Virus record (IMG/VR): IMGVR_UViG_3300038530_001000
Location: 1 to 54,267 of that record
Strand: one strand, 5' to 3'
Length of the DNA: 54,267 nucleotides
DNA from: a virus
Lineage: Duplodnaviria; Caudoviricetes
Shown: piece by piece, positions 17,852 to 37,256 of the stretch
How positions within the stretch are numbered: position 1 is the first letter of the stretch
Layout: every line of letters starts with the position of its first letter
Program-made: the position numbers and the translations under genes
Notes under the pieces: model-generated
Seen by the model: only the letters and a program-made list of their open reading frames with translations
Databases searched by the model: none
What the model was told of the DNA's origin: nothing

Positions 17852-19356
17852 TAATAGTAGTTCGCTTTTCTTGAGTAAAAGGGTTCGTCTTCTTCGTCCG
17901 AGCTTAGTTTAAGAAAGCCACCCTGACGGAATCTAAGCAGCGCCTGTGTCGATGAGTCCACAAGGTCATCGTGTTCGCCAGAAGGAAAAGCAGCGAACTC
18001 CTCGATCACTTCTTCAGCGAATCGAGTACCAGGTGCCCACACTATGCCGGATGCAAACAGATCCGCAACAGCATTCACCCGTGCAATCTTATCGTTGCCA
18101 CGGGACGGAGTGTATTCCGAAACAGGTATCCCCATCGCTCGTAGCTCAAATATCAGCGGCGTACCGGCAGCTTTTGCCTCCACGATAGTGGCATCAGGTT
18201 GCCAGTCCACATAAAACTCTTGGGCTGCTTTCTTGAGTTCCGGGAACTCTAGGCGCTCTTTGAAAGCATCCAGTAAAATAATGTTAGGTTGGGTAACCCC
18301 CTCATCGTCGGGCCTGTAGAAAACGCCCCACGTTGTGCAAGCCGAATAGTCTGAGCGTTGTGTTTTTAAAAACGCCGTATCCCAAGACTGAATGATGAAC
18401 TCACAGGGTGGTGGTCTTTCCTCTTGCCACTCCTGCCACCATTCTCGTTTGACCAGCGCACCCTCCTCGGAAGTGGGGTTCTGCTGATACTGGGCATTCC
18501 ATTTCGGTGCCGGTAATTCATTACGAAGCGCGGTCAACTCCTCTAGCGACCAAAACTCCGGCCACAGGGCTTTGCCTGATGGCATGATTGCGGGAAACTC
18601 AATCACCTCCCACTCATCCACACCGGCACGCTGCACCGATGATTTTATAATCTGTCCTGTCAGATCCCGTTTGTGCCAACGGGTCATCACTACAATGATC
18701 GCGCCACCAGGCTGTAAACGCTGACGTGGGCCTGATGTGTACCAGTCATACACTCGATCAAAGACGCCTGCATCTGCACTCTGGCCTTCCTGCTCAGAAT
18801 GCGGGTCATCGATGATCAACAGATCCGCACCTTTACCAGTCACGGCACCACCTACACCAATAGCGAAGTATTCACCGTTCTTGCTGGTGCTCCATCGACC
18901 AGCAGCCTTGCTATCAGATCTCAGACCTAAACTCGGAAAGACCGACTTATAGTCATCACTATCGACCAGGTTTCGCACCTTACGACCAAAACCCACAGAT
19001 AGCTCAGCAGTGTGGGCAGTCTGGATGATCTTCTTCTCCGGGAAGCGACCTAGAAACCAAGCAGGTAACAGATACGAAGCAAACTCTGATTTGGTATGCC
19101 TCGGCGGCATATTCACGATCAGTCGTTTTAATTCACCACTAGCGACACGTTCAAATGCGCTTGCCATGATCTTGTGGTGCCTGCCTTCAATAAACGCAGG
19201 CCATACATACTTGGTGAACCCCATGAAGCTGTCACGCGCAGCCTCCCGCTTCTCAGACTCTTCGAGATCTTCTAACAGAGAAAGGATTTCTTTCTGCTCT
19301 TCGAGCGGAAGATTAGGGAGTGCTTCTAATAGCTTTGCGTCAATCCGCTTTGACAA
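17851..19356 (-). CDS. terL: Terminase large subunit
   Basis: Walker A-like NMPPRHTKS, Walker B LLIIDDP, VMTRWH, nuclease QSWDTA, HDDLVDS; probable TTG start at 19356 after GGAG. Confidence 0.95.
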   Translation of the reverse strand: MSKRIDAKLLEALPNLPLEEQKEILSLLEDLEESEKREAARDSFMGFTKYVWPAFIEGRHHKIMASAFERVASGELKRLIVNMPPRHTKSEFASYLLPAWFLGRFPEKKIIQTAHTAELSVGFGRKVRNLVDSDDYKSVFPSLGLRSDSKAAGRWSTSKNGEYFAIGVGGAVTGKGADLLIIDDPHSEQEGQSADAGVFDRVYDWYTSGPRQRLQPGGAIIVVMTRWHKRDLTGQIIKSSVQRAGVDEWEVIEFPAIMPSGKALWPEFWSLEELTALRNELPAPKWNAQYQQNPTSEEGALVKREWWQEWQEERPPPCEFIIQSWDTAFLKTQRSDYSACTTWGVFYRPDDEGVTQPNIILLDAFKERLEFPELKKAAQEFYVDWQPDATIVEAKAAGTPLIFELRAMGIPVSEYTPSRGNDKIARVNAVADLFASGIVWAPGTRFAEEVIEEFAAFPSGEHDDLVDSSTQALLRFRQGGFLKLSSDEEDEPFYSRKANYY

Positions 19357-19500
19357 AATCACTCCAAGGGATTTGTCGATAGCTATCGATAGAAAGCTTT
19401 CGATCTGAAAGCTATCTCGAATACTGCATCGGCCCCGACCACCCCACAGGGGCCGTCGTAAGCCTTTAGGTCGAAAGCTATCTATAGTCAACTATAGGAC

Positions 19501-19538
19501 ATTTTAGCAGACTCTGCGACTTGACAACGAATGTCAAG
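19501..19538 (-). promoter_or_regulatory. Putative late promoter with palindromic operator upstream of terL
   Basis: CTTGACA-acgaa-TGTCAAG inverted repeat (19520-19538); minus-strand extended -10 TGcTAAAAT. Confidence 0.5.
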
Positions 19539-19802
19539 GCTATCGCTAAAATTTTTTAAAAATTTTTTTGCGGCCTGGGACTCCTGGCACCAAAGTATAC
19601 AAAAAATGGGTCGCTATTCGTGGTATGTGTTAGTTGTCAGAAAAATGGGGTAGTCGTTTGTGTGGTTTACTATGTATATGTATGCATACGCGCGTGTGCG
19701 TACAGGGGGGTGGGGGTGTCGCAACGTAAGCCAGTCGTCAGGAAAACGACCCCTCACATTAACCGTTATGATTCGTGGGTCGTGTGATGCTAACTGTTGT
19801 AT

Positions 19803-20267
19803 TTAGTGCAGCGGTTTGCCTTCTGTCTGACGATCACTGTTAGCCTCGGCTAGCCTGCGTTCTATTTCTGCGGCTACCTCGTCCGGTGATCTATCGTTTG
19901 TTTCGACTACTTGCTTGTCGCTAAACATTGCAACAGTGCGGCCCAACAATTGTGCAGCTTGCAATTGTGCCTGTGTTGGTTCGTCTCCAGTTTTGGGATC
20001 GATACCGTCCTCTACCCAAGCCCTTAACTTATTCGTTACCAGTTGCCTATCGTTCACGGCAACTCGTGCGATAGAAGCTACTTTCTGCTGGGTTATAGCC
20101 TCCACCCTTGCGGTAACCTTGGGGAGTTTCATCAGCCGACTAGCCTCACTGTGTACCGTTGATGCCTTGCCGGTGCTATTGAAAGCTTCCCTATATGCCG
20201 TCGATTGATCGCTGCCCCCAGCCACTAACTGGCAAAACCTTTCCTGCTTACTTGTGAGTTTATCCAT
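19803..20267 (-). CDS. terS: Terminase small subunit
   Basis: LTSKQERFCQLV...TAYREAF...EASRLMKLPKV HTH; A.QLLGR...MF; upstream of terL. Confidence 0.88.
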   Translation of the reverse strand: MDKLTSKQERFCQLVAGGSDQSTAYREAFNSTGKASTVHSEASRLMKLPKVTARVEAITQQKVASIARVAVNDRQLVTNKLRAWVEDGIDPKTGDEPTQAQLQAAQLLGRTVAMFSDKQVVETNDRSPDEVAAEIERRLAEANSDRQTEGKPLH

Positions 20268-20485
20268 TGCACCGAACCGCCCTATATAGTGGCACCAATC
20301 CTATAGCCCCAAATACCCCACAAACAGACCACATCTAACGACCCACATTAAGTGGCGCTTCGTGTAAACTCTGCCTTCGTCAACACTTTTTACCCTGATC
20401 GGCAAAATTCCCACAGGCTACTTTTCGTAATACAAACAACAACTTACGAATCATGACCAACAGGAATATAACCCTTTCTCATAAT

Positions 20486-20890
20486 TCGCGGTACGTTCGT
20501 CGTGATTCGTGATCTCTTGAATGCCAACGGCGACGGGGAGCCGACTGAATCCCGCCACTCAACAGGGTGTAAGCGAGTCCTGCAACGGGCAGCGCTGCCG
20601 AGTGACCTTCCCAGACTAGGCAAGTTCTGGTGCTAGATAGACGCGACACTGCCGTACCGGACGGGCAGCCAGTGAAGCGGTAGGGGAAACCCTTTTGCAA
20701 GCCTAGCAGCGCATAACAAGCGTGCAGCCTAAACCGGTGTTGAAGCCTAGGGTTGAACGGCTAGTGAAGTGAGTCCCGTACGGGCAGCACTGCTAGACCG
20801 GCCCGACAGCGTGCCATCGGCCAACGAACTGCGAGAGATGTTGTTTTACCAGAGCGCACTAGCAATCGGGCTAGTGCTTTCGAGTGAACC
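20486..20890 (+). ncRNA. Candidate large structured leader RNA of the early operon
   Basis: Ends complementary (GTTCGT/ACGAAC), repeated AAGYGAGTCC..ACGGGCAGCRCTGC motif, GGG-GAAA-CCC hairpin, GCACTAGC/GCTAGTGC hairpin; no credible ORF. Confidence 0.5.
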
Positions 20891-20919
20891 AACAAAGCAA
20901 AACACAACGGAGAAAATCC

Positions 20920-21060
20920 ATGGAACTAAATGACCACATAGCATTCGAGGATCTAATGATCGAGCAGGAAATCGAGACCGCAGGTCTCACCGACCTAGTC
21001 GAGGCGAAGGTAATACCAACGGAAGAACTCGACCGAATACTTAACGAACTTGGAGTGTAA
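20920..21060 (+). CDS. 46-aa very acidic first early protein (below the ORF track cutoff)
   Basis: RBS CGGAG; MELNDHIAFEDLMIEQEIETAGLTDLVEAKVIPTEELDRILNELGV. Confidence 0.75.
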   Translation: MELNDHIAFEDLMIEQEIETAGLTDLVEAKVIPTEELDRILNELGV

Positions 21061-21063
21061 GCA

Positions 21064-21315
21064 ATGACCTATGAAGTAGTGACAGCAGACCGCACCTTTG
21101 GCGGCTACCTAAATAATACCGAGTACAGCGTGCGAATCGAGAAAGATAGCGAGCGTTTCTATGTCCTCAAATACATAGATGACGAGCACATCGGAACGAC
21201 TCGTATCTCGATTGCTCAGCGTGGGGAACAGGGAGCACTGAAACAAGCGCGAATATATGTGGACGAGTTTCTCGCCACATGCAGCAACTGGCGTTACCGA
21301 AGATCCCCTAAGTAA
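21064..21315 (+). CDS. Early hypothetical protein
   Basis: RBS GGAG; operon context. Confidence 0.7.
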   Translation: MTYEVVTADRTFGGYLNNTEYSVRIEKDSERFYVLKYIDDEHIGTTRISIAQRGEQGALKQARIYVDEFLATCSNWRYRRSPK

Positions 21316-21376
21316 CTGTCGAAACCGCTCCGGCGGTCTGCATCGATTGGCCCCGATGCACTGATGAGACAGGCCA
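21316..21376 (+). ncRNA. Type II hammerhead ribozyme
   Basis: CTGTC-GAAA-CCGC(TCCG)GCGG-TC-TGCATCG(ATTGGCCC)CGATGCA-CTGATGA-GACAG-GCCA: full core, three perfect stems, GUC site, loop I / 3' tail pseudoknot. Confidence 0.95.
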
Positions 21377-21405
21377 CCGAATTCTATAACCAACGGAGAA
21401 ATCCT

Positions 21406-21669
21406 ATGCTGAACAAAGCATATCTAAACGACGAACTGACAGAAGAACTAGGTTACGACCTGTTCAAAGTCAACAACGATATAAACGGTAACCCGCGTTA
21501 CGTGATCCATTTTCTGGCATTCGCCAACACATACGACGAAGCGCACGCCATCGCAAAATCTATCGGCTTTCAGAAGTACCGAGGCAAAGACTTTGGCGGC
21601 GGTTTCGTTGGTCAAAGCTACAGCGTCCAAGGCACCGCGCAGGACATCATCAGAGTGAGAAACAAGTAG
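21406..21669 (+). CDS. Early hypothetical protein (NNDINGNPRYVIHF family)
   Basis: RBS CGGAG, ATG at 21406; KYRGKDFGGGFV.QSY. Confidence 0.75.
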   Translation: MLNKAYLNDELTEELGYDLFKVNNDINGNPRYVIHFLAFANTYDEAHAIAKSIGFQKYRGKDFGGGFVGQSYSVQGTAQDIIRVRNK

Positions 21670-21680
21670 GAGATTCTAAC

Positions 21681-22616
21681 GTGAAGAAACAAGCAAACAA
21701 ATTCAATCAGATCACCGAGACGATCATCAAACAGATGGAGACCCACGGCACCAACTGGACAAAGCCATTCACCGATGGTCAGGGCGGTATGCCGCGCCGG
21801 GCATTCGATGGGCGCAAGATGTACCGAGGCATCAACATACTGATGCTGGGCATGTGTGGCGGCTACTGGGCCACCTATGACCGATGGCAGCAAGAGGGAT
21901 ACCAAGTCCGCAAGGGCGAGAAATCCAGCACCGTGTACTTCTGGGCAGAACGGAAGAAAGAAGACCCAGAGACTAAGGAAGAGGTGAAGTTCTGGGTGTT
22001 CAACTCATACCATGTTTTCTCTGCTGATCAACTAGAAGTGGCTGGTGTGGCATGTATGCGCCGAGTCAAGGGCAGCAAGAAAAAAGAGCAGTTTATCAGC
22101 AAGGCATGGGTGAACCCCAACCCCACCGAGTTCAATGACGAGACTGAAATAATCCAGGCAGCAGATGAGTGGATCAACGCAACAGGTGCCGACGTGCGCC
22201 ACAGTGCGAAGGGTGCAGCGTACTACTCACACGCCGACTTTATCCACATGCCGAACCGTGAGCTATTCCTTGGCAGCGAGACCGCTAGCCCAACGCATTG
22301 CTATTACTCAACATTCTTTCACGAACTAACGCACTGGACGGGTGCCTCGCACCGACTGAGCCGTGAGAAGGGTCACAAGTTTGGCGACAAGAAGTATGCA
22401 TTCGAGGAGCTTGTCGCTGAGCTAGGCGCAGCGTTTCAGTGCGCTTTGCTGGGCATCTCGATGGAACCCAAGCCAGACCATGCCGAGTATCTCGCCAACT
22501 GGCTGACCTGTTTGAAAGAGCAGCCCAAGGCTATCTACAAGGCAGCATCACTGGCGCAGCAGGCGGTGGACTACATCGCCAAGTGCCAACCTATCAATCA
22601 AGAGGAGGCCGCGTAG
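21681..22616 (+). CDS. ardC: ArdC-like ssDNA-binding antirestriction protein with zincin-like domain
   Basis: W.KPF, YRGIN, WATY..W...G.QVRKGEK, VF.ADQ, D.IHMP, YYSTFFHELTHWTG (HExxH), YAFEELVAELGA, HAEYLANWL. Confidence 0.92.
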   Translation: MKKQANKFNQITETIIKQMETHGTNWTKPFTDGQGGMPRRAFDGRKMYRGINILMLGMCGGYWATYDRWQQEGYQVRKGEKSSTVYFWAERKKEDPETKEEVKFWVFNSYHVFSADQLEVAGVACMRRVKGSKKKEQFISKAWVNPNPTEFNDETEIIQAADEWINATGADVRHSAKGAAYYSHADFIHMPNRELFLGSETASPTHCYYSTFFHELTHWTGASHRLSREKGHKFGDKKYAFEELVAELGAAFQCALLGISMEPKPDHAEYLANWLTCLKEQPKAIYKAASLAQQAVDYIAKCQPINQEEAA

Positions 22617-22635
22617 CGGCCCCAGAGGTAGACAA

Positions 22636-22833
22636 ATGATCTTAACTGACACTAACGGAAAACGCTGGAAGCTCCACGCTCGGCTGAGCGGTGAGAGGTA
22701 TCAGATATATCCGAACCACTCACAATTAAATCTTAGCGAAGAGGACGGCGACCGTCCGACTACTGGCCTAACAATACCCGACCACATTGCCGACGAATGG
22801 ATTGCGGGCAGGGTGAGAGTCAAAGTTGATTAA
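22636..22833 (+). CDS. Early hypothetical protein
   Basis: RBS GAGG. Confidence 0.6.
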   Translation: MILTDTNGKRWKLHARLSGERYQIYPNHSQLNLSEEDGDRPTTGLTIPDHIADEWIAGRVRVKVD

Positions 22834-22843
22834 GGAGAAAAAC

Positions 22844-23074
22844 ATGCACACCTATCTTTCAGACGATCAGATCGACCGCATGGCAGATGCAGCGGTCACA
22901 ACATACGAAGTCGGTTGCGACTGGAACGGGGCGTTACAGGCAGCGATTGAATACAGCCTCGATGAGTACGGCATACGCCCTCGAAAATCAGCGGCATTGC
23001 TGGCACTGAAGCTGGCTAAAACTAAATGGCAAGGACGGGTGATGGCAGTGAAGCGTGCCATCGCTAATCAATAA
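22844..23074 (+). CDS. Early hypothetical protein
   Basis: RBS AAGGAG, ATG at 22844. Confidence 0.7.
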   Translation: MHTYLSDDQIDRMADAAVTTYEVGCDWNGALQAAIEYSLDEYGIRPRKSAALLALKLAKTKWQGRVMAVKRAIANQ

Positions 23075-23084
23075 GGAGAACAAC

Positions 23085-23474
23085 ATGGTAGTAACAAAAG
23101 AAAACTCACCAGTCTTTGATGGCATATGGCACTCAAGCAATGGTGATGCCCACGTCATACCAGAAGCTTGGATGCTTTGCCCTAGATGCAATGGCGAAGG
23201 CAAGCATGGCAACCCCGCATTCGATGGCATGAGCATGTCTGAATTGCATGAGCAGGATCACTGGGACGACGACTTCGTAGATGGCTATATGTCAGGACGC
23301 TATGACGTTACCTGCGAGGAGTGCAAAGGACGCACCACCGTCAGAGGGTACAACCTATCGAAGCTCACACCAGAGCTTCTCGAAGAATACTTTGCAGACG
23401 TGCGAGATATCGAAACCCAGCGATACGAAGATTGGAAAACATATCAGGCGGAGATGGGATACCGACCCTACTAA
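23085..23474 (+). CDS. Zinc-finger protein (DnaJ-type CxxCxGxG)
   Basis: CPRCNGEG and CEECKGR; RBS AAGGAG. Confidence 0.75.
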   Translation: MVVTKENSPVFDGIWHSSNGDAHVIPEAWMLCPRCNGEGKHGNPAFDGMSMSELHEQDHWDDDFVDGYMSGRYDVTCEECKGRTTVRGYNLSKLTPELLEEYFADVRDIETQRYEDWKTYQAEMGYRPY

Positions 23475-23489
23475 CAACAGGAGAAAAAC

Positions 23490-23750
23490 ATGAGAGAGAA
23501 AATCAAGTCCCTGACCTTGAAAGACTTAGTAAACATCGTTGAGCAGACGATAGATCACTACGATCTAACCCTGCCAAATTCATATCGAGTCGCTGAGTTG
23601 AACCAACTTAAAAGGTTAGCCAACGATCCAAACATACGGCCCGAACCCACCGAACTGGACTTAGCTAGATTCGATGTGCTCATTGATTACATGCAAGACC
23701 AAATCATTGATCAGCAAATTGACCGAGTTGTTGCGACTCGTTGCTCGTGA
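23490..23750 (+). CDS. Early hypothetical protein
   Basis: RBS CAGGAG. Confidence 0.65.
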   Translation: MREKIKSLTLKDLVNIVEQTIDHYDLTLPNSYRVAELNQLKRLANDPNIRPEPTELDLARFDVLIDYMQDQIIDQQIDRVVATRCS

Positions 23751-23764
23751 TACGTTATACTAAA

Positions 23765-24218
23765 CACACAACAGGAGATCCAATGATGGGCGTTAAAAAA
23801 ATAAATGGGCAATTCAATAATTTCGTTTGTGCCGGAGACACCATACGCGACAACGTAAATGGATGGGGTGTGCGTGTTTCTGTTTTGCATGACAGTGACT
23901 ACCACATTGACGATGACGATATGCACAGTGAAAACCAAGCGTTAACAGGGCTGAATGAGGAAGCACACAAGAGCCTTATGGCTGCGAGAACGTCATGGTT
24001 TAGGAATGACTGGTTCTATGGAGGAGTTAGTGTCTCTATTTATCGAGAAGGTGTTGAGTTGGCAGAACAATCTATTTGGGGCGTGGAGGTTAATTACCCT
24101 AATTCTAACAACGAATATCTGATGGAGCTTGCTAACGAACTATTAGAGGAATGCTTTACAGAAGCGCATCACAAGATAGAAAAACTTTCGGCTTTTGCCA
24201 CACAACAGGAGATCCAAT
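23765..24218 (+). repeat. Exact 20-nt direct repeat CACACAACAGGAGATCCAAT (23765-23784, 24199-24218) flanking one gene
   Basis: Direct comparison; both copies contain the RBS. Confidence 0.9.
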
Positions 24219-24220
24219 AA
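23783..24220 (+). CDS. Early hypothetical protein
   Basis: ATG at 23783 after CAGGAG; W.YGGV.V......L...SIWGVE. Confidence 0.7.
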   Translation: MMGVKKINGQFNNFVCAGDTIRDNVNGWGVRVSVLHDSDYHIDDDDMHSENQALTGLNEEAHKSLMAARTSWFRNDWFYGGVSVSIYREGVELAEQSIWGVEVNYPNSNNEYLMELANELLEECFTEAHHKIEKLSAFATQQEIQ

Positions 24221-24498
24221 TGAACTACAAAACAAGACGATTCTTTCGAGACCTGACGCGAGGACTGAAGATCTTCGCAGCATTCATGATGAAGATGGCG
24301 GCAGCGATTCTATTACTATTTGTTGGCGTTTTCTTCACCCACTACGCATTTACCACCACAAGCATCGATGACCTGCGCTTTGGCGTCCTGGCTATGAAGT
24401 TCATGGGCCTTGCGTTCTGCTCGATCTCAGCAGGCGTGATGTTCATAGCAGTGCGTGATTTTGATGATGACGCACGATTCTATTTTGGAGGGCGATAA
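24220..24498 (+). CDS. Two-TM membrane protein
   Basis: Two hydrophobic segments; ATG at 24220 after CAGGAG. Confidence 0.7.
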   Translation: MNYKTRRFFRDLTRGLKIFAAFMMKMAAAILLLFVGVFFTHYAFTTTSIDDLRFGVLAMKFMGLAFCSISAGVMFIAVRDFDDDARFYFGGR

Positions 24499-24713
24499 TG
24501 GGAACGATAAACAACAAGCTGGAGCATTGGTTACCAGATCACCTGCGAAATCTTGAATGGTATTTAACGTGTGACTATCAAAGCGTCAATACATTCAGCG
24601 CCTGCTATTGCTTCAATAGTGAAGCATCAAAAGACATGGTACTGAGACGAGAGATCAAGGAACTAAAAGAATATCTTTATGCGACCACAGGCATGAATTA
24701 CGGAGGGCGTTAG
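24498..24713 (+). CDS. Early hypothetical protein
   Basis: RBS GGAGG; TAATG coupling. Confidence 0.6.
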   Translation: MGTINNKLEHWLPDHLRNLEWYLTCDYQSVNTFSACYCFNSEASKDMVLRREIKELKEYLYATTGMNYGGR

Positions 24714-24715
24714 CT

Positions 24716-25093
24716 ATGAAGTATCAACAATGGGACGCAAGTGTTCGAGGCTGCAAAACTTTCAAGGATGACTGCGTTGTGAGGTCACTCAGCGTTGTGC
24801 TGGGTAAGCCTTACGCCAGAGTGTTCACTGATCTAATGGGGATTGGTCAACTCATGTGGGCCTTTCCCAATCACGACAAAGTTTGGATCTGGTATGCCGA
24901 GGATCAAGGGCTGGTCAAACGTAAGCCACCCCGCGATGACAACGGCAAGCTGATCAAACTCAGCGACTGGGACTACAAAGGCATAGCCATCGTCCGCAAT
25001 AGCGGACACCTCACGGCAGTCGAGCACGGCTACCTGATCGATACATGGGACTGCCGCTATCGCCCAGTCAACAGCTACTGGGAGACAATCTGA
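24716..25093 (+). CDS. Putative papain-like Cys-His-Asp hydrolase
   Basis: DCVVRSLS...GHLTAV..G.LIDTWDC. Confidence 0.6.
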   Translation: MKYQQWDASVRGCKTFKDDCVVRSLSVVLGKPYARVFTDLMGIGQLMWAFPNHDKVWIWYAEDQGLVKRKPPRDDNGKLIKLSDWDYKGIAIVRNSGHLTAVEHGYLIDTWDCRYRPVNSYWETI

Positions 25094-25275
25094 TGGATAA
25101 CTACTCAGCCGAGGGCATTGTTAAAGGGTTTATCGAGGCCGATGAGACCAAGGTGATCGAGGCTTGGCAATACCTAGTCGATACCGGCTTTGCTTGGCAG
25201 CTAATCGCAGCGCAGGCAATAGAACCTTGGGCCATACAAAACCTGATCGATGCAGGAATTATCACTGCAAAATAA
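25093..25275 (+). CDS. Early hypothetical protein (EAWQYLVDTG.AW.L family)
   Basis: TGATG coupling; RBS GGAG. Confidence 0.65.
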   Translation: MDNYSAEGIVKGFIEADETKVIEAWQYLVDTGFAWQLIAAQAIEPWAIQNLIDAGIITAK

Positions 25276-25302
25276 TTTCACAAACCAACAGGAGAAATCC
25301 AA

Positions 25303-25668
25303 ATGACTAACCAAATCAAACAATACCTGATCGACAGCATCACCTTGGAAGGATACACCGATCCAGACGGCAACCCATACAACGAACAAAGCATGACCGA
25401 TGGCGAGAAGATCGTCGCCGCCAAGCGTAACTTCGAGTCAGAGATGGGCTGGTTGATCGAGAGATCAGGACAGCACAAGGCTTGTGTCGATTGGCTGTCT
25501 GGCCTGTGCAGCACTATGAACATCGCCTTCTCATACACAGACATCATCGACCTAGCCCGACGCACTGGTGGACTCAAGGAGGGTGACAGCGAGAGGCGAG
25601 AGGACTACATCTGCGAAAACTACTTCCCCTTCATGGCAACCAAGTTGCTGCAACTATTCAACACATAA
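25303..25668 (+). CDS. Early hypothetical protein
   Basis: RBS CAGGAG; DWLSGL. Confidence 0.7.
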   Translation: MTNQIKQYLIDSITLEGYTDPDGNPYNEQSMTDGEKIVAAKRNFESEMGWLIERSGQHKACVDWLSGLCSTMNIAFSYTDIIDLARRTGGLKEGDSERREDYICENYFPFMATKLLQLFNT

Positions 25669-25678
25669 GGAGAACCCG

Positions 25679-26038
25679 ATGAGCGAATTAGAAATAGATG
25701 AAATGGATCTTAGCAACTTAACCGATGTGCAGCTTGACATGATCAATAACCTCGTTTGGAAGGTTTGCCAGGCGGCTTCTGGCCCCAACCTAACAATGAA
25801 CAGACTGGCGACTCGTATACGAAAAGAGAAAGAAGCAAGGGCGCTCGATTGGATTTATGAAGAAACTCTCAAGGGAGAAGAAGCAGAAGGCCACTGGCGT
25901 TGCCATAAATCTTTCGACATAGATTCAGACCACGGGCCATGCACAGGCTATGAGATCGAAGATCTAGGCATCACGATCTATACCTACGTCGATGATGACA
26001 ACCGCATATCAATTCACAGAGAGGAGACCCAAAAATGA
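25679..26038 (+). CDS. Early hypothetical protein
   Basis: RBS AAGGAG, ATG at 25679. Confidence 0.65.
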   Translation: MSELEIDEMDLSNLTDVQLDMINNLVWKVCQAASGPNLTMNRLATRIRKEKEARALDWIYEETLKGEEAEGHWRCHKSFDIDSDHGPCTGYEIEDLGITIYTYVDDDNRISIHREETQK

Positions 26039-26466
26039 ACGAACAAAAGTCAATCGACTTAGCAGCAGATAATTGGGTGAGGCTACACAAAAAAGGGCAC
26101 TTGAATTTAGACCACATAGGGAAGGTGTATGGCTCTGTCGCGGGGTACCTTCGCAACCATGGTTCTGGCCGAGGTGACCGTGGATTGCGCGATATCGAAA
26201 TCGCTTCATGGCATCACAAAGACGGCTGGACTGACACCGTTGAATGGTACGAGGACACCTACCAAATCGGATACTACCGATTACCCCGCGAAGAAAGAGT
26301 GACTCCACAAGACCACACCTCACAACTTGATTTCTGTGCTGATTTTGACTGGTGCCTAGATCGCATCAAAGAGTTGAGAGACGAGGGCTATTACGACATC
26401 TCTATGCACGAATTGAGCGAGGGCGAATACGTCAGCGAGATTCGTATCGAAGACTACATAAATTAA
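26035..26466 (+). CDS. Early hypothetical protein
   Basis: RBS GAGGAG; ATGA overlap. Confidence 0.65.
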   Translation: MNEQKSIDLAADNWVRLHKKGHLNLDHIGKVYGSVAGYLRNHGSGRGDRGLRDIEIASWHHKDGWTDTVEWYEDTYQIGYYRLPREERVTPQDHTSQLDFCADFDWCLDRIKELRDEGYYDISMHELSEGEYVSEIRIEDYIN

Positions 26467-26487
26467 TCACATCAAGGAGCAAACAGC

Positions 26488-26730
26488 ATGAGCAACGTGA
26501 CCCCAATCAAAACCAAGACCCACGCAAACCTGAGTGAGATGTTACTCAAGGCAGGCATAGCAGACTCAAGAGTGCCGGACTTACGCCGCGCTCTCATCGA
26601 TGTTCACAAAGCCTACTGCGATCTCGATCCCTGGGGCCGCAGTGACTTCAAGCATCTGTGTGGAGACCGCAAGTTCCACGAAGTGCTAATGATGATTGCG
26701 TCAGTTGAGGATCTGAACACTGATCTGTGA
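26488..26730 (+). CDS. Early hypothetical protein
   Basis: RBS AAGGAG. Confidence 0.65.
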   Translation: MSNVTPIKTKTHANLSEMLLKAGIADSRVPDLRRALIDVHKAYCDLDPWGRSDFKHLCGDRKFHEVLMMIASVEDLNTDL

Positions 26731-26732
26731 AG

Positions 26733-26761
26733 TTGCAACCACACAACGACTCGTATAAAAT
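26733..26761 (+). promoter_or_regulatory. Sigma70-type promoter
   Basis: TTGCAA-17 nt-TAAAAT in intergenic gap. Confidence 0.7.
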
Positions 26762-26792
26762 AACGTACAACACACAACAAACAGGAGAACCT

Positions 26793-27479
26793 ATGAAACC
26801 CATAACGAAGCAAGAACTGCGCGATCAACTGAAAGAAGCTAACGAGAAGTTGATCGACACTGAGCGTCGCCTGAGAGACGCAGAGACTCAAAGAGAATCG
26901 ACACGCAAAAGATTCGTTGAGAAGCGTGAGCGTGTTGAGGAACTGGAGGCTCTGTTAGCCATCGAGAACCATGATCCAGACTTGGTAGACAAGTACAAGA
27001 TCGTTCACCCAGACAATGTTTGGTGGATGAAATCCTCTGATGCGTACATCACCATCAACACGCATGGCGCTGAGTCTGACTACCACATGGGCAAGAAGCA
27101 GCGAGTCAGCACAATACCAATTCCTAATCTAAATCTTGCATCTCGATGGCACAGCAAAGTGCCGAGCATTCGTGTATGGCAGGATGGAGAATGGCAGTAT
27201 GTTGAGTCTAATTCTTGGGTGCTGGTCAGCGAAGACGATAAGGGTCAGGTCTGGGAGAGACCTAGTGTCGAGATCGGTGACCGCACTTATCCATCTGAGA
27301 CTGTTCTGGTGGAAACGCGAGAGCAATTCTATGCCCGTAAAAGAGTGGAGACCGACGAGCACATCGCTCTGTTGCTTGATACCGCCCGAAGCATTACCGA
27401 TTTGTACTCCAAGATTGGCGGCTGGCCCGACAACGAGGTATCAGTCGATGTAGAGATCAACAACATTCAGGATATTTAG
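26793..27479 (+). CDS. Hypothetical protein with N-terminal coiled coil
   Basis: ATG at 26793 after CAGGAG (MKPITKQELRDQ...). Confidence 0.75.
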   Translation: MKPITKQELRDQLKEANEKLIDTERRLRDAETQRESTRKRFVEKRERVEELEALLAIENHDPDLVDKYKIVHPDNVWWMKSSDAYITINTHGAESDYHMGKKQRVSTIPIPNLNLASRWHSKVPSIRVWQDGEWQYVESNSWVLVSEDDKGQVWERPSVEIGDRTYPSETVLVETREQFYARKRVETDEHIALLLDTARSITDLYSKIGGWPDNEVSVDVEINNIQDI

Positions 27480-27487
27480 GAGACGCC

Positions 27488-27859
27488 ATGAAACCCGAAA
27501 CGAAACAAGAACTGCGTGATCAGGTTGCACACCAAGAGAACCTGCTAGATATACAGCAACAAGCGATCGGTGACTTGGAGGACAAGTTATACCCACAGAA
27601 GATCTACCTTGATCATGCAGACATCGGAATGATTTTGACTTTGTTGCACCATGAATCTGGCTCCATTGACGAGGGCCTTAATAGGCTGGAACGCATTGAA
27701 GATCCGTACGATCAAGTTGGTGACGCTGTTTATTATGCGCTGAATCAACAGAAGGGCCGTCTGAGAAAGCTGGCAAACAAAATCAAAGATCAGTCTCCGA
27801 GAGACTATAAATTTGATGTCGATATGCAAGCTGTCGTGCCGACTGAGTCCAATGAGTGA
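27488..27859 (+). CDS. Hypothetical coiled-coil protein; N-terminus paralogous to the previous gene
   Basis: MKPETKQELRDQ; RBS AGGAG. Confidence 0.75.
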   Translation: MKPETKQELRDQVAHQENLLDIQQQAIGDLEDKLYPQKIYLDHADIGMILTLLHHESGSIDEGLNRLERIEDPYDQVGDAVYYALNQQKGRLRKLANKIKDQSPRDYKFDVDMQAVVPTESNE

Positions 27860-28169
27860 TTTTGAAGAGATCCTCGACTCACTCGATGCACTGATCGTGC
27901 AGTGGGAGGAGGCTGCCATGGCTCAAGTGAACTATGACACTTCCTTCAAAAGCTGGGAGTCTGCACGCAAGACAGCACTTATGGATTCGGGTCTCAGCGC
28001 AGTTCGCGCCGAGGCTCAGATCCGTGGGTCTGCTGAGTGGTCTCAGTACTACACTGATCTGCAAATGCAGAACATCCAGGTTGAGAAGAAACGAAAACAG
28101 ATCGATGCCTGCAAGCTTCGCTTCGAGGCAGAGCGCACCGAGAGAGCCGATAAAAGGAGGATCGTGTGA
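27852..28169 (+). CDS. Helical hypothetical protein
   Basis: ATG at 27852; S...AEAQIR.S.EW...FEAERTERA. Confidence 0.6.
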   Translation: MSDFEEILDSLDALIVQWEEAAMAQVNYDTSFKSWESARKTALMDSGLSAVRAEAQIRGSAEWSQYYTDLQMQNIQVEKKRKQIDACKLRFEAERTERADKRRIV

Positions 28170-28405
28170 GTCAGCAATTCATTCACGATATGCGTGAAAA
28201 GGTGATCGCAATGGAAAAGATCAGCGAGATCCAGGAGATGCTGCACAACATGGCGGCATTGATGGTGGGCTACCCCGATGCGTCCGAAGAACAAAGCAAG
28301 CAATGGCTCGACACTCTGAACATCTGCCGGATCGAACTCAGGCGTCGGCATCCCCACGGGCAGGTACGTCTTGCGCCCAAGAAGGGAGTGATCAGCAATG
28401 ACTGA
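28166..28405 (+). CDS. Hypothetical protein
   Basis: RBS AGGAGG; GTGA overlap. Confidence 0.6.
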   Translation: MSQQFIHDMREKVIAMEKISEIQEMLHNMAALMVGYPDASEEQSKQWLDTLNICRIELRRRHPHGQVRLAPKKGVISND

Positions 28406-28721
28406 TGAAGAATGGATTCAGGAATACGAGAAGGCGGTGGCAGAGGTTCATCGCAAGCTCGAAGTCTGTGAGAAAGAACTCGTGATGTATTTTGTTAGAA
28501 CGGATGTCGATCAGCTTGGATCGAAAGATTGGTGGGCAAAAGAGGTTCAGACAAGTCTGATCCACGTCATCCAAAGGGATATCGGACTGTTGGCTAAAGG
28601 TGTCCATCAATATCGCGGATGGCGAGAGCGAATCGCTAGGATGGAGCGAGAAGGTAAGCTAGAGGGCAATGATCTCAACAGCGATAGCCTGCTGGTATAC
28701 GGTCAATACGAAATATATTAA
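28398..28721 (+). CDS. Hypothetical protein
   Basis: RBS GGGAG; operon context. Confidence 0.6.
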   Translation: MTDEEWIQEYEKAVAEVHRKLEVCEKELVMYFVRTDVDQLGSKDWWAKEVQTSLIHVIQRDIGLLAKGVHQYRGWRERIARMEREGKLEGNDLNSDSLLVYGQYEIY

Positions 28722-28735
28722 GGAGGACTAACACA

Positions 28736-29014
28736 TTGAAAGGGAGAAACCATTTCGTGGATCTCGAAAAAGAGGTACGCGAGTATTTATCTGACGCTGA
28801 TCTTCGCGCGCAAGTGCTTGAGGAGTTAGCGCAAAACATTTTGAGGAAAATGGTGGAGATGCACAGTTACACCAGCGGGCCTGGGCTTGTGAGTCCAGCG
28901 CCAAAAAGCTCTGTGTCCTTCGCTGGCGCGATAGTGAAAGGCGTTGCCAGCGTAATCGCCGAAGAGTTGGGGAAGTATGGCGAGGAACGTCCTGCGCCCA
29001 AAAAGGAGAGCTAA
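28736..29014 (+). CDS. Hypothetical protein
   Basis: RBS AAGGAGG, TTG start. Confidence 0.6.
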   Translation: MKGRNHFVDLEKEVREYLSDADLRAQVLEELAQNILRKMVEMHSYTSGPGLVSPAPKSSVSFAGAIVKGVASVIAEELGKYGEERPAPKKES

Positions 29015-29016
29015 CT

Positions 29017-29310
29017 GTGTTGGATAGAGGTGACGCAGAACGAAGCGATCCACGCGCACCGTGGAACCAGCCGGACGCGATCATGTGTCCAAAGCATCCC
29101 GACATCGAGATGAATGAGGTTGAGGATGAAGACGAGAATGGCAAGTACTGCTTCACGTTCTGTGAAGTCTGCCTTGCTATCGAGGAAAACGAAAACGACA
29201 ACCTCCGATGTGGGGTCTGTCATGGCAATGACCTGGAATACGATCATGGCCCAGGCTTTTACTGCCTGCGCTGCGAGATGCACCAGGAAGTATTCATAAA
29301 CGAACTTTAA
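29017..29310 (+). CDS. Acidic Cys-rich (zinc-ribbon) protein
   Basis: CPKH, CEVC, CGVC, CLRC. Confidence 0.6.
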   Translation: MLDRGDAERSDPRAPWNQPDAIMCPKHPDIEMNEVEDEDENGKYCFTFCEVCLAIEENENDNLRCGVCHGNDLEYDHGPGFYCLRCEMHQEVFINEL

Positions 29311-29318
29311 GGAGAACC

Positions 29319-30599
29319 ATGGATTTCAAGATAGGTGACGCCGACGAGCTGGCGGATATGGCAGAAAAGATGATCAAGGGATCGAGTGTCGATTCGGAAA
29401 AACTGTTCAACATGCAGTTAGGCGATTTACAGAACGAGGCCATCGCAGCCAAGCAGCAACCCTTTGCCAAGCTGATTGGAATGGAGGAATACGAACATAC
29501 CAAAGAGCACAAAATTTTTTGGAAAAAGAAGTCTAAGCAAAGGCTTAACGACCCGATTCACGGGTTACGCAAAGCTGTAAGCTACACGATATCTGACGAG
29601 ATTATTGATTTTCTTCGGCCCTCCGTCGAAAAGGGTAACCAGCGAGCACTGTACAACGCTTGCCTGAACGCACGACCACGTCACAACAATATGTGGATTG
29701 AGTGGGAGTCTCATGACCCGTTGCAACATCGAGGCTTGACGGGTTGGCACATCATGACGATGCCTAATGTCTACAGGCTTGACAACGGTCATGCTGGACG
29801 TAGCTATCCGGTGAAGGCAGGCGAGTGCTTTCACTTCGAGAATTACTACGAGATCGATATCAAGCATCCCGCCCGATTCGCTAAGGCCAACGAGCTTATG
29901 GATAAGGCCGAGATAACCGGCGCTGCATTTGATGAAAATGTGCGAGTGGCGAGCGGCAAATTACAAAAACGGGTAGGCATATCGAAGCTGTCAGGATCGA
30001 CGGATATCTGGGCCAGTGAGCAGATATTCCAAAGAGACGGCAGCACTTTACTCCCCGAGCAAGTGAAGGCTAATGACGCGCTGAATGCGATGTGGTTCCT
30101 TGGTGATAATAGAGGTGAGTTCTCTCCAGATATGCAAACCATCATGGGAAATCGATGGCGTATTGGGCTGAACAATTACATCGATGACACCCCCGAGAAC
30201 AACAGACGAGTGCCGTTTGACCGGCGGGAGGAAGCGAACAAGATGGCTTGGCTGATGGCGATACTGAGCCTCATGAACTTCGACTGGTTTGTTGAAGAGC
30301 CGCGCAACGCAGGTGTACAGGGTAGCAAGCCGATGCGCGGGAACATAACGCCGTTTGATTCGCATTATACGGTGCTTTTGAAATTGCCGAAGACCAGGGG
30401 GCGAGTAATCGTACCCAAACAACCCAAGCGCACTGAGAGCTATGGTGTACGCTGGCACGAAGTCGTTGGCCACAAGCGCCATTATCGGGATGAGTTTGGT
30501 CAGATATACAAAACGATCTATATCAAGCCATACGGGCGTGGAAACGAGAAACTAGGACGTGTAACAAAAGACTATGCGGTGGTGAAAGACGATGAGTGA
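29319..30599 (+). CDS. Conserved phage protein (426 aa) with C-terminal H.V.GH.R motif
   Basis: RWHEVVGHKRHY...IYIKPYGRGNEKLGRVTKDY; RBS AAGGAG. Confidence 0.8.
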   Translation: MDFKIGDADELADMAEKMIKGSSVDSEKLFNMQLGDLQNEAIAAKQQPFAKLIGMEEYEHTKEHKIFWKKKSKQRLNDPIHGLRKAVSYTISDEIIDFLRPSVEKGNQRALYNACLNARPRHNNMWIEWESHDPLQHRGLTGWHIMTMPNVYRLDNGHAGRSYPVKAGECFHFENYYEIDIKHPARFAKANELMDKAEITGAAFDENVRVASGKLQKRVGISKLSGSTDIWASEQIFQRDGSTLLPEQVKANDALNAMWFLGDNRGEFSPDMQTIMGNRWRIGLNNYIDDTPENNRRVPFDRREEANKMAWLMAILSLMNFDWFVEEPRNAGVQGSKPMRGNITPFDSHYTVLLKLPKTRGRVIVPKQPKRTESYGVRWHEVVGHKRHYRDEFGQIYKTIYIKPYGRGNEKLGRVTKDYAVVKDDE

Positions 30600-30822
30600 A
30601 CTTAGTATTAAATACCTCAAGCTTGAGGCAGATGAACTGACTACCCTGGCGACTCTGCTTCGCATGAGCAAGGACGATCCCAGGATTAATGGCTTGATCG
30701 GCACTTGTTTTTGGAGTCACGCCTACTCAAAGGAGGAGGAGGCCGAGCTAAAACAAGCTTGGACTCGACTGCTCGATAAGGTGAATGCGCTGGTCGAGGA
30801 GCAGCATAATGTCTCTGTTTGA
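30592..30822 (+). CDS. Hypothetical protein
   Basis: Overlaps previous stop; operon context. Confidence 0.6.
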   Translation: MSELSIKYLKLEADELTTLATLLRMSKDDPRINGLIGTCFWSHAYSKEEEAELKQAWTRLLDKVNALVEEQHNVSV

Positions 30823-31048
30823 TGATGTGGAGCAAATCATGGTGCTGGCAAACGAGATACTTGGCGATCACCCCAAGGGCGACTATGAGATCGTGATCAT
30901 GTATCGAGACCCAGACTTGGGTGAGGAGTGGCAGACTGCCAGCTATCGAGACATGATGATCTCGGACATCCAATCTCTACCAGAGATCACTGACGGCTAC
31001 GAGATCGGTGGTATGTCAGTCAAGAAAATCAGAGGACTAAGGGGCTAG
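30809..31048 (+). CDS. Acidic hypothetical protein
   Basis: ATG at 30809 after GAGGAG. Confidence 0.65.
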   Translation: MSLFDDVEQIMVLANEILGDHPKGDYEIVIMYRDPDLGEEWQTASYRDMMISDIQSLPEITDGYEIGGMSVKKIRGLRG

Positions 31049-31062
31049 GATCGGCAAGGCGA

Positions 31063-31171
31063 GTGTCAGCGTCAGGCCGTGCTGGGCTTAACACGACCCA
31101 GCCTCCAGTGTGAAATAGGTGAGATGAAGCGGCTGCCCCATGGTTCACAACCCAATCTCATCGACTGGCAC
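31063..31171 (+). ncRNA. Candidate double-pseudoknot structured RNA
   Basis: Closing helix GTGTCAG/CTGGCAC around two crossing helix pairs; intergenic. Confidence 0.45.
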
Positions 31172-31177
31172 ATCTAT

Positions 31178-31220
31178 CAAAAAGAAACCCCCGGTCACAG
31201 ATGGAGGCGGTGACCGGGGG
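31178..31220 (-). terminator. Rho-independent terminator of the minus-strand replication operon
   Basis: 11-bp stem CCCCCGGTCAC/GTGACCGGGGG followed on the minus strand by TTTCTTTTT. Confidence 0.85.
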
Positions 31221-31252
31221 CTAGGGATGACGGTTAAGGAGAGACCCGTCAA
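31178..31252 (-). ncRNA. Candidate sRNA with two anti-Shine-Dalgarno loops
   Basis: Possible promoter TTGCAA-16-GAGAAT (31284-31257); hairpin loops GUCUCUCCUUAA and CGCCUCCAUCU; terminator. Confidence 0.5.
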
Positions 31253-31287
31253 ATGGATTCTCTCAAACGCTATAGGATTTGCAAAGA

Positions 31288-31764
31288 CTATTCTCTTCCC
31301 TTGGAAATGTAATCTCGATCCAATTGCTGCATCGCTAGACGGAAGATCGGAATCTCTTCATCGACAAACTCCTTGTCTTGAGCAATGCCGTTGATCACCA
31401 TGTAAGCATGATCGTCACCTACTGCTTCCTCGATGCATTTTGCAGTGTCCCGCAACCTTAGCAACCCGTAGTTGTAATTACTTTTCTGGAATCTAGTCGA
31501 TGGTGTGCTGTTCAGGTTCACACTTTTCACAAACGCTCCGGCGTCCACGAACACTTGCAGCATGTACTCTGCTGCCTTGTGCTCGATCAAAGTGATCTTG
31601 TCCTTCAGCAGCAACCGATCTATGGCTAACTGATCGGTGACTCTCGCCCTCGACACCACCTCGCCATCTTCTTTTTCCAAAACAATGTCGTGTCTCTCAT
31701 GCAGTTTCGGATTACCCACATCCATTGTGATTTCATCAGATGTCCCACTCGTCTTCTGTTTCAT
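31288..31764 (-). CDS. Hypothetical protein, possibly a late transcription regulator
   Basis: RARVTDQLAIDRLLLKDKIT..EH.AAE; downstream of primase-helicase. Confidence 0.6.
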   Translation of the reverse strand: MKQKTSGTSDEITMDVGNPKLHERHDIVLEKEDGEVVSRARVTDQLAIDRLLLKDKITLIEHKAAEYMLQVFVDAGAFVKSVNLNSTPSTRFQKSNYNYGLLRLRDTAKCIEEAVGDDHAYMVINGIAQDKEFVDEEIPIFRLAMQQLDRDYISKGRE

Positions 31765-33511: not shown

Positions 33512-33605
33512 CTTGCCTCCTTGCGAATCGTTGTGATTTGTGATATTTATCGAAAGCAATCGAACGACAGCTATCTCATCAACTCTTTAAGTTGATCTGT
33601 AGCTT

Positions 33606-34224: not shown

Positions 34225-34225
34225 G

Positions 34226-34254
34226 TTGCACAACATAACGTGGGTCGTTATACT
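34226..34254 (+). promoter_or_regulatory. Sigma70-type promoter for the recombination operon
   Basis: TTGCAC-17 nt-TATACT. Confidence 0.75.
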
Positions 34255-34276
34255 TTGCAACCTGATGGAGGTTTGC

Positions 34277-35771: not shown

Positions 35772-35782
35772 AGGAGAATCTG

Positions 35783-37253: not shown

Positions 37254-37256
37254 TAA

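Follow-up and report, generated by a model that had tools for sequence, protein, structure and literature searches.

Between the packaging genes and the early operon of the phage contig IMGVR_UViG_3300038530_001000 lies a 653-nt gap without genes (20268-20919), which raises the question of what this stretch of DNA does in the life of the phage. The contig, a near-complete (98%) IMG/VR phage contig of 54,267 bp, was analyzed over its whole length, which we call the window. An earlier note on this DNA had proposed that 20486-20890 is a structured early leader with a repeated internal motif, possibly a new class of noncoding RNA that would act as an antiterminator for the ~10-kb early operon or as a protein decoy. 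In line with that note, we found no credible open reading frame (ORF) in the leader: each of the six frames is interrupted by stops, stretches that resemble each other lie in different frames in different relatives, no conserved reading frame was found, and 0 of 6 leader ORFs matched PHROGs or Pfam above noise. What we observed instead is a conserved, covarying fold of ~300 nt on the + strand that heads the early operon in related marine podophages, and we consider it very probable that 20527-20835 is a structured + strand RNA. The best explanation overall, to which we assign a probability of roughly 40%, would be a detachable, protein-binding early RNA linked to counter-defense.

Relatives of the locus were collected by several routes. 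Searches with terS (the terminase small subunit gene on the left of the gap) and with the ArdC-like, 83-aa, and 46-aa proteins encoded on its right (the last as an alignment) returned only two to five close relatives; flank-anchored searches, in which the ~100-bp module A next to terS served as one of the keys, added close relatives; and two scans of IMG/VR with exact strings from inside the window leader yielded 13 further loci on 13 contigs, the terS regions of which are ~70% identical in DNA. Our alignment (A7) holds 13 sequences, i.e., the window and 12 relatives. Three loci were left out of it: Within the region, L152 has the same sequence as L149, and L151 and L160 contribute only the final ~80 nt of the leader and ~25 nt, respectively. 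A blastn comparison of the 653-nt gap to 50,697 deposited phage records gave no match. Among the relatives, the gap is a mosaic that consists of a constant module A, a promoter-proximal module of two types, and a leader of at least four forms: ~60 nt (L137); ~170 nt ending in a hammerhead (L132); the ~400 nt of the window, also present in L129 and L130; and ~800 nt, unalignable to the window leader and ending in a hammerhead (L008 and L131). Because the leader length in this slot ranges over ~60, ~170, ~400, and ~800 nt, the RNA is, as far as these sequences tell, optional cargo.

The consensus that RNAalifold derived from A7 defines a core structured RNA of ~309 nt (20527-20835, + strand) with 12 consensus helices in three domains. 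As many as 24 of its 55 consensus pairs carry at least one compensatory double change. Standard pairs fill 96.3% of the 671 cells (83.5% in shuffles), 89 cells are changed on both sides (29.2 in shuffles), and the covariation score is 0.338 (0.124 in shuffles); none of 500 shuffles reached any of these values. When the 3' partners were slid by 1 to 3 columns as a control, 2 to 6 compensatory pairs remained. The notion of the earlier note, a possibly new class of noncoding RNA, is borne out insofar as the structured RNA is supported by covariation and has no match in Rfam. For the three closest sequences, the consensus energy was -111.7 versus -81.4 ± 5.8 in column shuffles and the structure conservation index was 0.84 versus 0.65 in shuffles (0 of 60 for both); the number of compensatory pairs in these three was not significant (10 versus 6.6 ± 1.8; 5 of 60 shuffles). 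Near-invariant segments stand within a divergence of 30 to 40%, and conservation is low in the middle of the RNA. The ~800-nt leader of L008 and L131 is itself structured, with 12 compensatory pairs versus 2.7 ± 1.6 in column shuffles (0 of 60).

We attribute the 24 compensatory pairs, the excess in the second leader type, and the near-invariant segments to selection on structure. The same three observations speak against a slot without function, i.e., a mosaic, recombination-prone spacer between divergent operons in which hairpins are incidental. Such a spacer would account for the high mosaicism of the slot, with its modules exchanged between relatives, for the poorly conserved middle of the RNA, and for an unremarkable single-sequence fold, but in view of the covariation we hold it to be barely credible.

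The fold begins with a near-invariant 5' domain (20528-20556, + strand), which runs from CGGCGACGGGGAGCCGA to CUGAAUCCCGCC and contains a hairpin (20536-20542/20547-20553; 5 pairs, 98.5% of cells paired); the invariance of its columns is partly by construction, as a 20-mer from this domain served as a search key. In two relatives, an extra hairpin is inserted in the loop of this hairpin. A helix at 20556-20560/20601-20604, which encloses the first copy of a repeated motif (see below), is followed by the 7-bp hairpin P4 (helix 6; 20611-20630, + strand), in which 3 of 7 pairs covary. A long-range helix, GCUAG/CUAGC (helix 7; 20632-20636/20703-20707, spanning 20632-20707 on the + strand), then closes around the variable middle, where A7 is poorly aligned (~20640-20700). 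All 5 pairs of this helix are formed in 13/13 sequences, including its two variable pairs, which occur as GC/AU/UA and as AU/GC/UA/UG. Domain 3 (20734-20820, + strand) is built of nested helices (20734-20739/20815-20820, 20750-20755/20799-20804, and 20761-20770/20789-20796), and covarying pairs make up 5/6, 1/6, 5/8, and 1/2 of its helices 9 to 12, the value of 5/6 belonging to 20734-20739/20815-20820. A short form of the RNA was observed in L148 (positions 730-1028), in which the third domain (the equivalent of 20708-20835) is missing but the 5' and middle domains and the terminal hairpin are kept; judged from this one form, the RNA domains appear modular.

The strings quoted in the earlier note all lie where it had placed them, as direct reading of the sequence confirmed, and the pairings that it drew from them fared differently. 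It had closed the leader with a helix between a 5' arm (TCGCGGTACGTTCGT, 20486-20500, + strand) and a 3' partner (ACGAACTGCGA, 20824-20834, + strand). The single-sequence fold does use this helix, but the partners are not conserved in L129 and L130, and the family consensus pairs 20815-20822 elsewhere. The GGG-GAAA-CCC hairpin that it had pointed out (GGGGAAACCC, 20683-20692, + strand) lies in the poorly conserved middle, is missing in relatives, and was not confirmed as meaningful.

What did hold up was the internal repeat. The earlier note had listed two long copies (AAGCGAGTCC..GCTGC at 20571-20598 and AAGTGAGTCC..ACTGC at 20767-20793) and a third, ACGGGCAGC, at 20661, all on the + strand, and the repetition is indeed beyond chance: GGGCAGC occurs six times on the + strand of the window, with three occurrences inside the 653-nt gap (0.07 expected from density), spaced by 76 and 119 nt. 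In the RNA, these copies take the form of a hairpin with a 3-bp outer stem, a 5' AGU, a CCC-loop-GGG stem, a 3' CAG, and the closing outer strand, i.e., a 3x3 internal loop (5' AGU / 3' CAG) set on a CCC/GGG stem. Copy 1 (20572-20596, + strand) reads AGC(G)/AGU/CCU-GCAAC-GGG/CAG/(C)GCU, and its pair 63-84 is CG in 7 and UA in 4 cases. Copy 2, which contains ACGGGCAGC, has the stem CACUG/CAGUG (20647-20651/20671-20675, + strand) and lies inside the variable middle; in relatives, its outer stem is GUCGGC/GCCGAC, as read by eye. Copy 3 (20769-20790, + strand) forms the tip of domain 3, within helices 9 to 12. The second (middle) outer pair is Watson-Crick in 11/11 copies from both leader types (GC 4, UA 4, CG 2, and AU 1). 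The loops of these copies measure 4 to 6 nt (3 to 6 nt for the hairpins in general), and the AGU and CAG flanks are not complementary.

A background for the motif was obtained with the pattern GAGTCC-N4-9-CGGGCAGC, which gave at least 119 stretches in IMG/VR; these were single unrelated matches, lying within long ORFs, and were used as background only. Both outer pairs were formed in 16/16 leader copies versus 19/93 of the pattern-selected background matches. In the window, the motif is limited to the leader, and in a complete 65-kb relative, GTCCC-N3-6-GGGCA occurs twice, both times in the leader and both times forward. The motif is also all that the ~800-nt leader shares with the window leader, in 4 copies in L008 and 3 in L131. 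This second leader type (L008:870-1679 and L131:357-1121) further shows ~10 GGCAG-containing sites and a 22-nt direct repeat, CGAACCGACAATCAATGGGCAG. Judged from its sequence, this leader probably represents another large RNA, distinct from the window RNA, with the motif hairpin as its building unit.

Solitary hairpins of phages can also serve another end. Copy 2 (CACUGCCGUA...GGCAGC, 20647-20669) presumably recalls the repeats of type I-F clustered regularly interspaced short palindromic repeat (CRISPR) systems, and the AGUCCC flank those of type I-E. An RNA anti-CRISPR (Racr-like), with hairpins that mimic CRISPR repeats and titrate Cas6/Cas7-type proteins, would sit as solitary hairpins just after a promoter in a phage anti-defense region (PMC10651486), and features described for Racr in that source are present here, namely, a promoter within ~250 bp upstream (the -10-like hexamers described below) and no cas genes nearby. 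Consistent with the latter, no Cas family was found among 43 window proteins compared to PHROGs and 21 compared to Pfam, and PADLOC on 7 early proteins gave a noise match only (E-value 0.029). Against such a mimic, no Rfam CRISPR-DR match was found at E <= 10 with queries of 251 and 801 nt, L129/L130 do not conserve the 5' arm by which copy 2 resembles I-F repeats, and the hairpins are not solitary but sit within one large covarying fold. We consider a Racr-like role highly improbable. A ToxI-like antitoxin RNA was rejected, with 0 tandem arrays (score >= 30; ToxI repeats measure ~34-48 nt) and no toxin family among the neighbors.

The strand that folds could be read from the wobble pairs. Over the 13 sequences, we counted 49 G-U/U-G cells versus 8 A-C/C-A cells, and because G-U outnumbers A-C in this way, the + strand is the folded one. 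In the same direction, the + strand is paired in 96.3% of cells versus 90.2% for its complement; a strand comparison on three sequences had been nearly tied (-111.7 versus -108.0), and it was the wobble count on 13 that decided.

These counts bear on the idea that the gap acts as DNA. Packaging sites (pac/cos) are often found near terS, which the gap adjoins. A packaging site, an operator array, or a single-strand promoter as before plasmid anti-restriction genes would also fit with the recurring hexamer core and with the association with ArdC, which is typical of plasmid leading regions (PMC7213743), and the STAXI motif near anti-restriction genes has been discussed as possibly single-stranded DNA (PMC2864571). 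A duplex site, however, needs neither long-range covariation nor an excess of G-U over A-C, and a single-strand promoter on the template strand would need the opposite, less completely paired strand to fold. Unlike a dimer-binding palindrome, moreover, the motif has loops of varying length and noncomplementary AGU/CAG flanks, and same-strand hammerhead or hammerhead-like elements (one Rfam match, the rest by eye) argue for transcription in relatives. All this makes a DNA-level element very improbable.

Where the RNA begins can be narrowed down by comparison with relatives. The putative early promoter region (20437-20522, + strand) contains a -10-like hexamer, TTGAAT (20517-20522), which aligns with TATAAT in relatives (L147, L154, L156, and L157) and lies 4 to 7 nt before the near-invariant CGGCGACGGGGAGCC; TATAAT is also present in L137, whose leader lacks the RNA. 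From this alignment, the RNA most likely starts near 20527 and not at 20486, as the earlier note had it, and the 5' arm at 20486-20500 is probably promoter or operator DNA upstream of the likely RNA start. An alternative promoter, CCAACA-N17-CATAAT (20457-20485), would start the RNA near 20492. Around the early promoter, we also observed an imperfect 25-nt inverted repeat (20437-20461/20495-20519; 76% complementary) and TTCGT repeats; the inverted repeat and the TTCGT units, the latter kept across promoter-module types, may be operators. An assembled metatranscriptome library (X20) held one 585-nt contig that covers 20845-21063 only, with bins 20412-20813 uncovered, and has no bearing on transcription. 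The RNA would be the first product of a predicted early promoter that faces away from terS.

A location right after the early promoter is what the antiterminator proposed in the earlier note would need. HK022 put consists of two stem-loops of ~70 nt, and like put and the nut sites of lambda, the window RNA is a structured RNA just after an early promoter, of which the first 30 nt are near-invariant; a long untranslated leader exposed to Rho might plausibly require some protection. A processive antiterminator RNA of the put/nut type would promote read-through of terminators, or of Rho, over the 10-kb early operon. Yet no + strand terminator-like site occurs in 20900-31400, and the only one in 19000-38000 is at 35567, in a scan that covers terminator-like sites and not Rho-dependent ones. 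The boxA sequence GYTCTTTAANA (PMC5725501; a gamma-proteobacterial consensus) had no match with <=2 mismatches in 20268-20920, and window-wide matches numbered 82 versus 83.4 expected. Unlike put and nut, furthermore, the window fold measures ~300 nt, relatives that lack the RNA keep the same operon layout, and ribozyme cutting between RNA and genes in relatives would break the tether to the polymerase. The antiterminator claim is thus not upheld, and we regard this role as improbable.

At its 3' end, the RNA is followed by an irregular terminal hairpin of 19-21 bp (20839-20894, + strand; -26.2 kcal/mol, z = -4.94, 0/200 shuffles). The arms that the earlier note had quoted before the first ribosome site (GCACTAGC/GCTAGTGC, 20856-20863/20870-20877, + strand) belong to this hairpin, which is real and conserved: It is kept in 9 sequences, with 93.4% of cells paired and with conserved G-U pairs. 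It ends ~15 nt ahead of the ribosome site (GGAG) and, as an irregular ~20-bp duplex between functional RNA units, fits a processing feature for RNase III of the T7 early-site type.

In relatives, the corresponding position is occupied by ribozymes or ribozyme-like elements. Hammerhead_3-like matches (RF00008) were found at the leader end of L131 (34.3 bits) and L132 (39.3 bits), both below the gathering threshold of 48.5, and the hammerhead at the leader end of L008 was read by eye. L156 and L157 have, in place of the terminal hairpin, the element GUC...CUGAUGAG-stem-CGAAAC after the RNA, which by eye is a type III hammerhead. Because L156/L157 carry such an element there, we take the terminal hairpin of the window to fill the slot of a hammerhead or hammerhead-like element. 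The leader-end hammerheads of relatives lie ~15-30 nt before the ribosome site, and no hammerhead was found inside 20268-20920 of the window (Rfam, E <= 10). Further downstream, the window does contain a type II hammerhead ribozyme (21317-21378, + strand; RF02276, 38.5 bits versus a gathering threshold of 37), the only match of the whole window to Rfam 15 (4227 families) at gathering, which is predicted to separate the RNA and two small genes from the remainder of the operon. In 6/8 relatives scanned, a type II hammerhead that scores above gathering lies ahead of ArdC. Type I hammerhead-like matches (30.8 bits versus gathering 34) were also observed deeper in the early operon, at L148:3095-3150 and L149:9524-9579 (- strand), so that several hammerheads seem to punctuate this operon in relatives.

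The RNA, in either of its types, also keeps company with an anti-restriction gene. An ArdC-like gene lies downstream of it in 12/14 contigs examined, and the two exceptions (L130 and L153) end ~1.0 and ~0.5 kb after the RNA start. The order in L156 is RNA, hammerhead, ArdC, two small genes, and a gene beginning MRILSFGGG, and in L132 and L137, the MRILSFGGG gene comes directly after the short leader, with neither RNA nor ArdC between.

Could the RNA simply regulate the genes that it precedes? As a cis-acting leader, i.e., a sensor or regulatory 5' untranslated region (5'UTR) of a riboswitch-like, protein-autoregulated, or stabilizing kind, it would set how the small genes and ArdC are translated, how stable their message is, or how ribozymes or RNase cut it, and it would be idle once detached. 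Its location directly between promoter and first ribosome site fits this, as do its continuity in the window, where it is uncut before 21317, and the invariant nucleotides amid covarying stems, which are found likewise in ligand- or protein-binding leaders; the constant presence of ArdC downstream would fit a loop in which ArdC, through its single-strand-binding N-domain (PMC7213743), regulates its own synthesis. Against this, the hammerhead of L131 (and, by eye, those of L008 and L156/L157) would sever the RNA before the ribosome site. We also saw no terminator and no platform that sequesters the ribosome site, from which the terminal hairpin stays clear; close relatives have the same operon type with a 60- or 170-nt leader without the fold; and a length of 300-800 nt far exceeds that of known cis sensors. 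On balance, a cis-acting leader is the main rival of the reading given next and seems to us rather unlikely.

We instead favor a detachable protein-binding early RNA linked to counter-defense, which keeps the protein decoy of the earlier note as the leading idea and would work in two steps. In the first, the RNA would be no ordinary 5'UTR but a module that can be split off, detached or insulated here by RNase III-type processing or by an insulating hairpin and in relatives by a self-cleaving hammerhead or hammerhead-like element. In the second, the free RNA would bind proteins at several sites early in infection, as a scaffold or decoy, and its function would be linked to that of the ArdC-type anti-restriction genes downstream; it may sequester a host nucleic-acid-binding defense or RNA-processing protein, or work with ArdC. 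Because relatives carry a hammerhead or hammerhead-like element at the slot, a function common to both motif-bearing leader types cannot need attachment to the message. Protein binding is suggested by the multivalency of the hairpins, and counter-defense by the optional presence of the RNA, its swapping between close relatives, and its link to ArdC. Large covarying RNAs are rare, and those that are understood are ribozymes, riboswitch-like sensors, or protein scaffolds. We would give even odds to the RNA being a detached module, whereas a trans-acting protein binder linked to counter-defense is put forward tentatively. More specifically, the RNA might be the nucleic-acid half of a two-part counter-defense module, bound by the N-domain of ArdC or acting as a decoy for a host restriction or RNA-sensing protein, which we deem unlikely. 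An alternative for a fold of such size and conservation would be a new ribozyme class.

Several points weigh against the picture drawn above. Some of them concern the fold: Covariation was counted on the alignment from which the consensus structure itself had been derived, and the exact-string search keys, taken from the most conserved parts of the RNA, inflate the apparent invariance there. Taken singly, the 405-nt stretch does not fold more stably than dinucleotide shuffles (-143.5 versus -146.1 ± 5.6 kcal/mol, z = +0.46), and single-sequence minimum-energy folds are poorly conserved, with 15 pairs kept versus 27 broken and 16 versus 28. Others concern the ends of the RNA. A scan for consensus sigma-70 promoters finds no site here; the L156/L157 hammerhead is not in Rfam at E <= 0.1 and has a minimum-energy fold without stem III; and in the window itself, the RNA and the first gene are not separated by a ribozyme, which means that the RNA may stay a 5'UTR up to the hammerhead at 21317. 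The association with ArdC, lastly, could be plain synteny within one phage clade. Everything beyond "structured RNA", i.e., the transcript ends, the cleavage, and the binding partner, we infer from sequence.

How does the RNA relate to known systems? Compared to Rfam at E <= 10, the RNA region returned only group-II-D1D4-4, plus noise. A group II intron (RF02003) was rejected, as this match scores 22.2 bits versus 49, no Intron_gpII occurs in 19500-37500 at E <= 1, and group-II-D1D4-4 is absent in the relative L130 at E <= 5. We found no published description of this RNA in the literature searched, supplementary motif lists such as those of PMC2864571 aside. The fold thus appears undescribed, while early leaders, hammerheads, and anti-restriction genes in this arrangement are already known (PMC3088659). 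In phages and prophages, early leaders are trimmed by hammerheads, which also lie on either side of anti-restriction genes such as ardA (Perreault et al. 2011, PMC3088659); in haloviruses HF1/HF2, HHphage is located 13 nt ahead of the first early gene (PMC3088659). Like these systems, the window RNA heads an anti-restriction operon that is punctuated by hammerheads. Unlike those leaders, the window copy ends in a plain hairpin and its fold has no hammerhead core, and the sections of PMC3088659 on these leaders treat the ribozymes rather than a large conserved fold upstream of them.

A parallel in arrangement is STAXI (RF01728; Weinberg et al. 2010, PMC2864571), in which, as here, a unit is repeated two to three times near anti-restriction or DNA-handling genes of mobile elements. 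STAXI units, however, are described as tandem pseudoknots in Enterobacteriales (PMC2864571), whereas the window units are internal-loop hairpins spread in one large fold of marine phages; the STAXI model gave no match at E <= 10, and TRF found no tandem repeat.

Further comparisons can be drawn with T7 and with other large RNAs. The T7 early leader, a functional analog, has an RNase III site before gene 0.3 (ocr) and tandem promoters and is not known to be a conserved folded RNA. Like T7, the window would have a host-polymerase promoter in first-entering DNA, an untranslated leader of several hundred nucleotides, and an irregular ~20-bp hairpin before a small acidic first gene, with anti-restriction expressed first; unlike in T7, RNase III cutting of the window hairpin is conjectural. 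GOLLD, ROOL, and the RAGATH motifs resemble the window RNA as large, GC-enriched, multi-helix phage RNAs with conserved nucleotides near hammerheads and differ from it in that the window RNA has no gathering-level Rfam match, the classes having been compared through Rfam only.

The phage itself has a G+C content of 49.5%. Its nearest cultured relatives by TerL (terminase large subunit) are the marine podophages Pelagibacter phage HTVC027P (58% identity) and phage 023Pt_psg01, and given this G+C content, its host probably differs from theirs. HTVC027P, 023Pt_psg01, and DSL-LC04 were dropped as comparison loci, as their gene order around terS/terL differs. TerL matches in genome contigs led to two phage-like contigs (L140 and L141; 79% TerL identity), which were rejected for their other layout and lack of leader similarity. 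These are filed in metagenome-assembled genomes labeled as marine archaea (Methanobacteriota and Poseidonia); one is as long as a complete phage genome (61 kb), and both probably come from phages and were misassigned in binning.

To the left of the gap, terS (19803-20267, - strand; phrog_51 1e-17, PF03592) is the first gene of the divergent late/packaging operon, with terL next on the - strand; a terS homolog lies upstream of the RNA, on the opposite strand, in relatives too. Module A (20268-20370, ~100 bp, no assigned strand), recognized from alignments, adjoins the terS start. It is C-rich on the + strand (GC skew -0.38 to -0.41), roughly 80-90% conserved, and present in every close relative, and from its position, it could be a late promoter, the terS 5'UTR, or a packaging site. 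Within it, TGGCACC looks like half a sigma-54 promoter; a sigma-54 site at TGGCACCAATCCTAT was rejected by eye, as the -12 GC element is missing.

To the right of the gap, the first genes follow a ribosome-site leader, the 11-mer CAACGGAGAAA (20905-20915, + strand), which occurs at two sites only, 20905 and 21391, the latter right after the hammerhead at 21317. The first gene (20920-21060, + strand) is an ORF for a 46-aa acidic protein, found in 5/5 close relatives whose leader bears the motif; PHROGs and Pfam searches gave no family for this protein, and the ESM Atlas returned nothing. An acidic micro-protein is the first ORF after the RNA elsewhere as well: The 46-aa form is that of the window's clade, an 18-aa form (MDNQDHKDFEEFMREQNL) occurs at L147:3413-3469, an acidic first ORF is also present in L148, L149, and L155, and the pattern M..(N/Q)DH..FE..M.EQ is common to these micro-proteins. 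Next come an ORF for an 83-aa protein (21064-21315, + strand), for which relatives but no family match were found, the type II hammerhead, and a TreK-like early gene (21406-21669, + strand; PF24229 1.2e-20). The ORF list places the start of the latter at 21364, inside the ribozyme; from the sequence context, it probably starts at ATG 21406, downstream of both the ribozyme and the shared ribosome site. The ArdC-like anti-restriction gene (21681-22616, + strand; PF08401 and PF18818) encodes a single-stranded-DNA-binding N-domain and a zincin peptidase. Farther away, a 1879-aa protein (37257-42896, - strand) carries the "large polyvalent protein" domain LPD38, and its C-terminal half matches PHROGs of giant proteins of 2,800-3,900 aa with unassigned function; together with the ArdC-like MPTase-PolyVal gene, it suggests a protein set deployed early or delivered with the DNA.

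For the biology of these phages, the RNA represents a concrete, clonable candidate for RNA-based counter-defense. Like counter-defense genes, it may be present or absent and is exchanged between close relatives. If the two-part module were true, anti-restriction would be exerted by an RNA-protein pair instead of by a protein alone. The RNA could also clarify the purpose of the leaders that are trimmed by phage hammerheads, a question left open in 2011 (PMC3088659).

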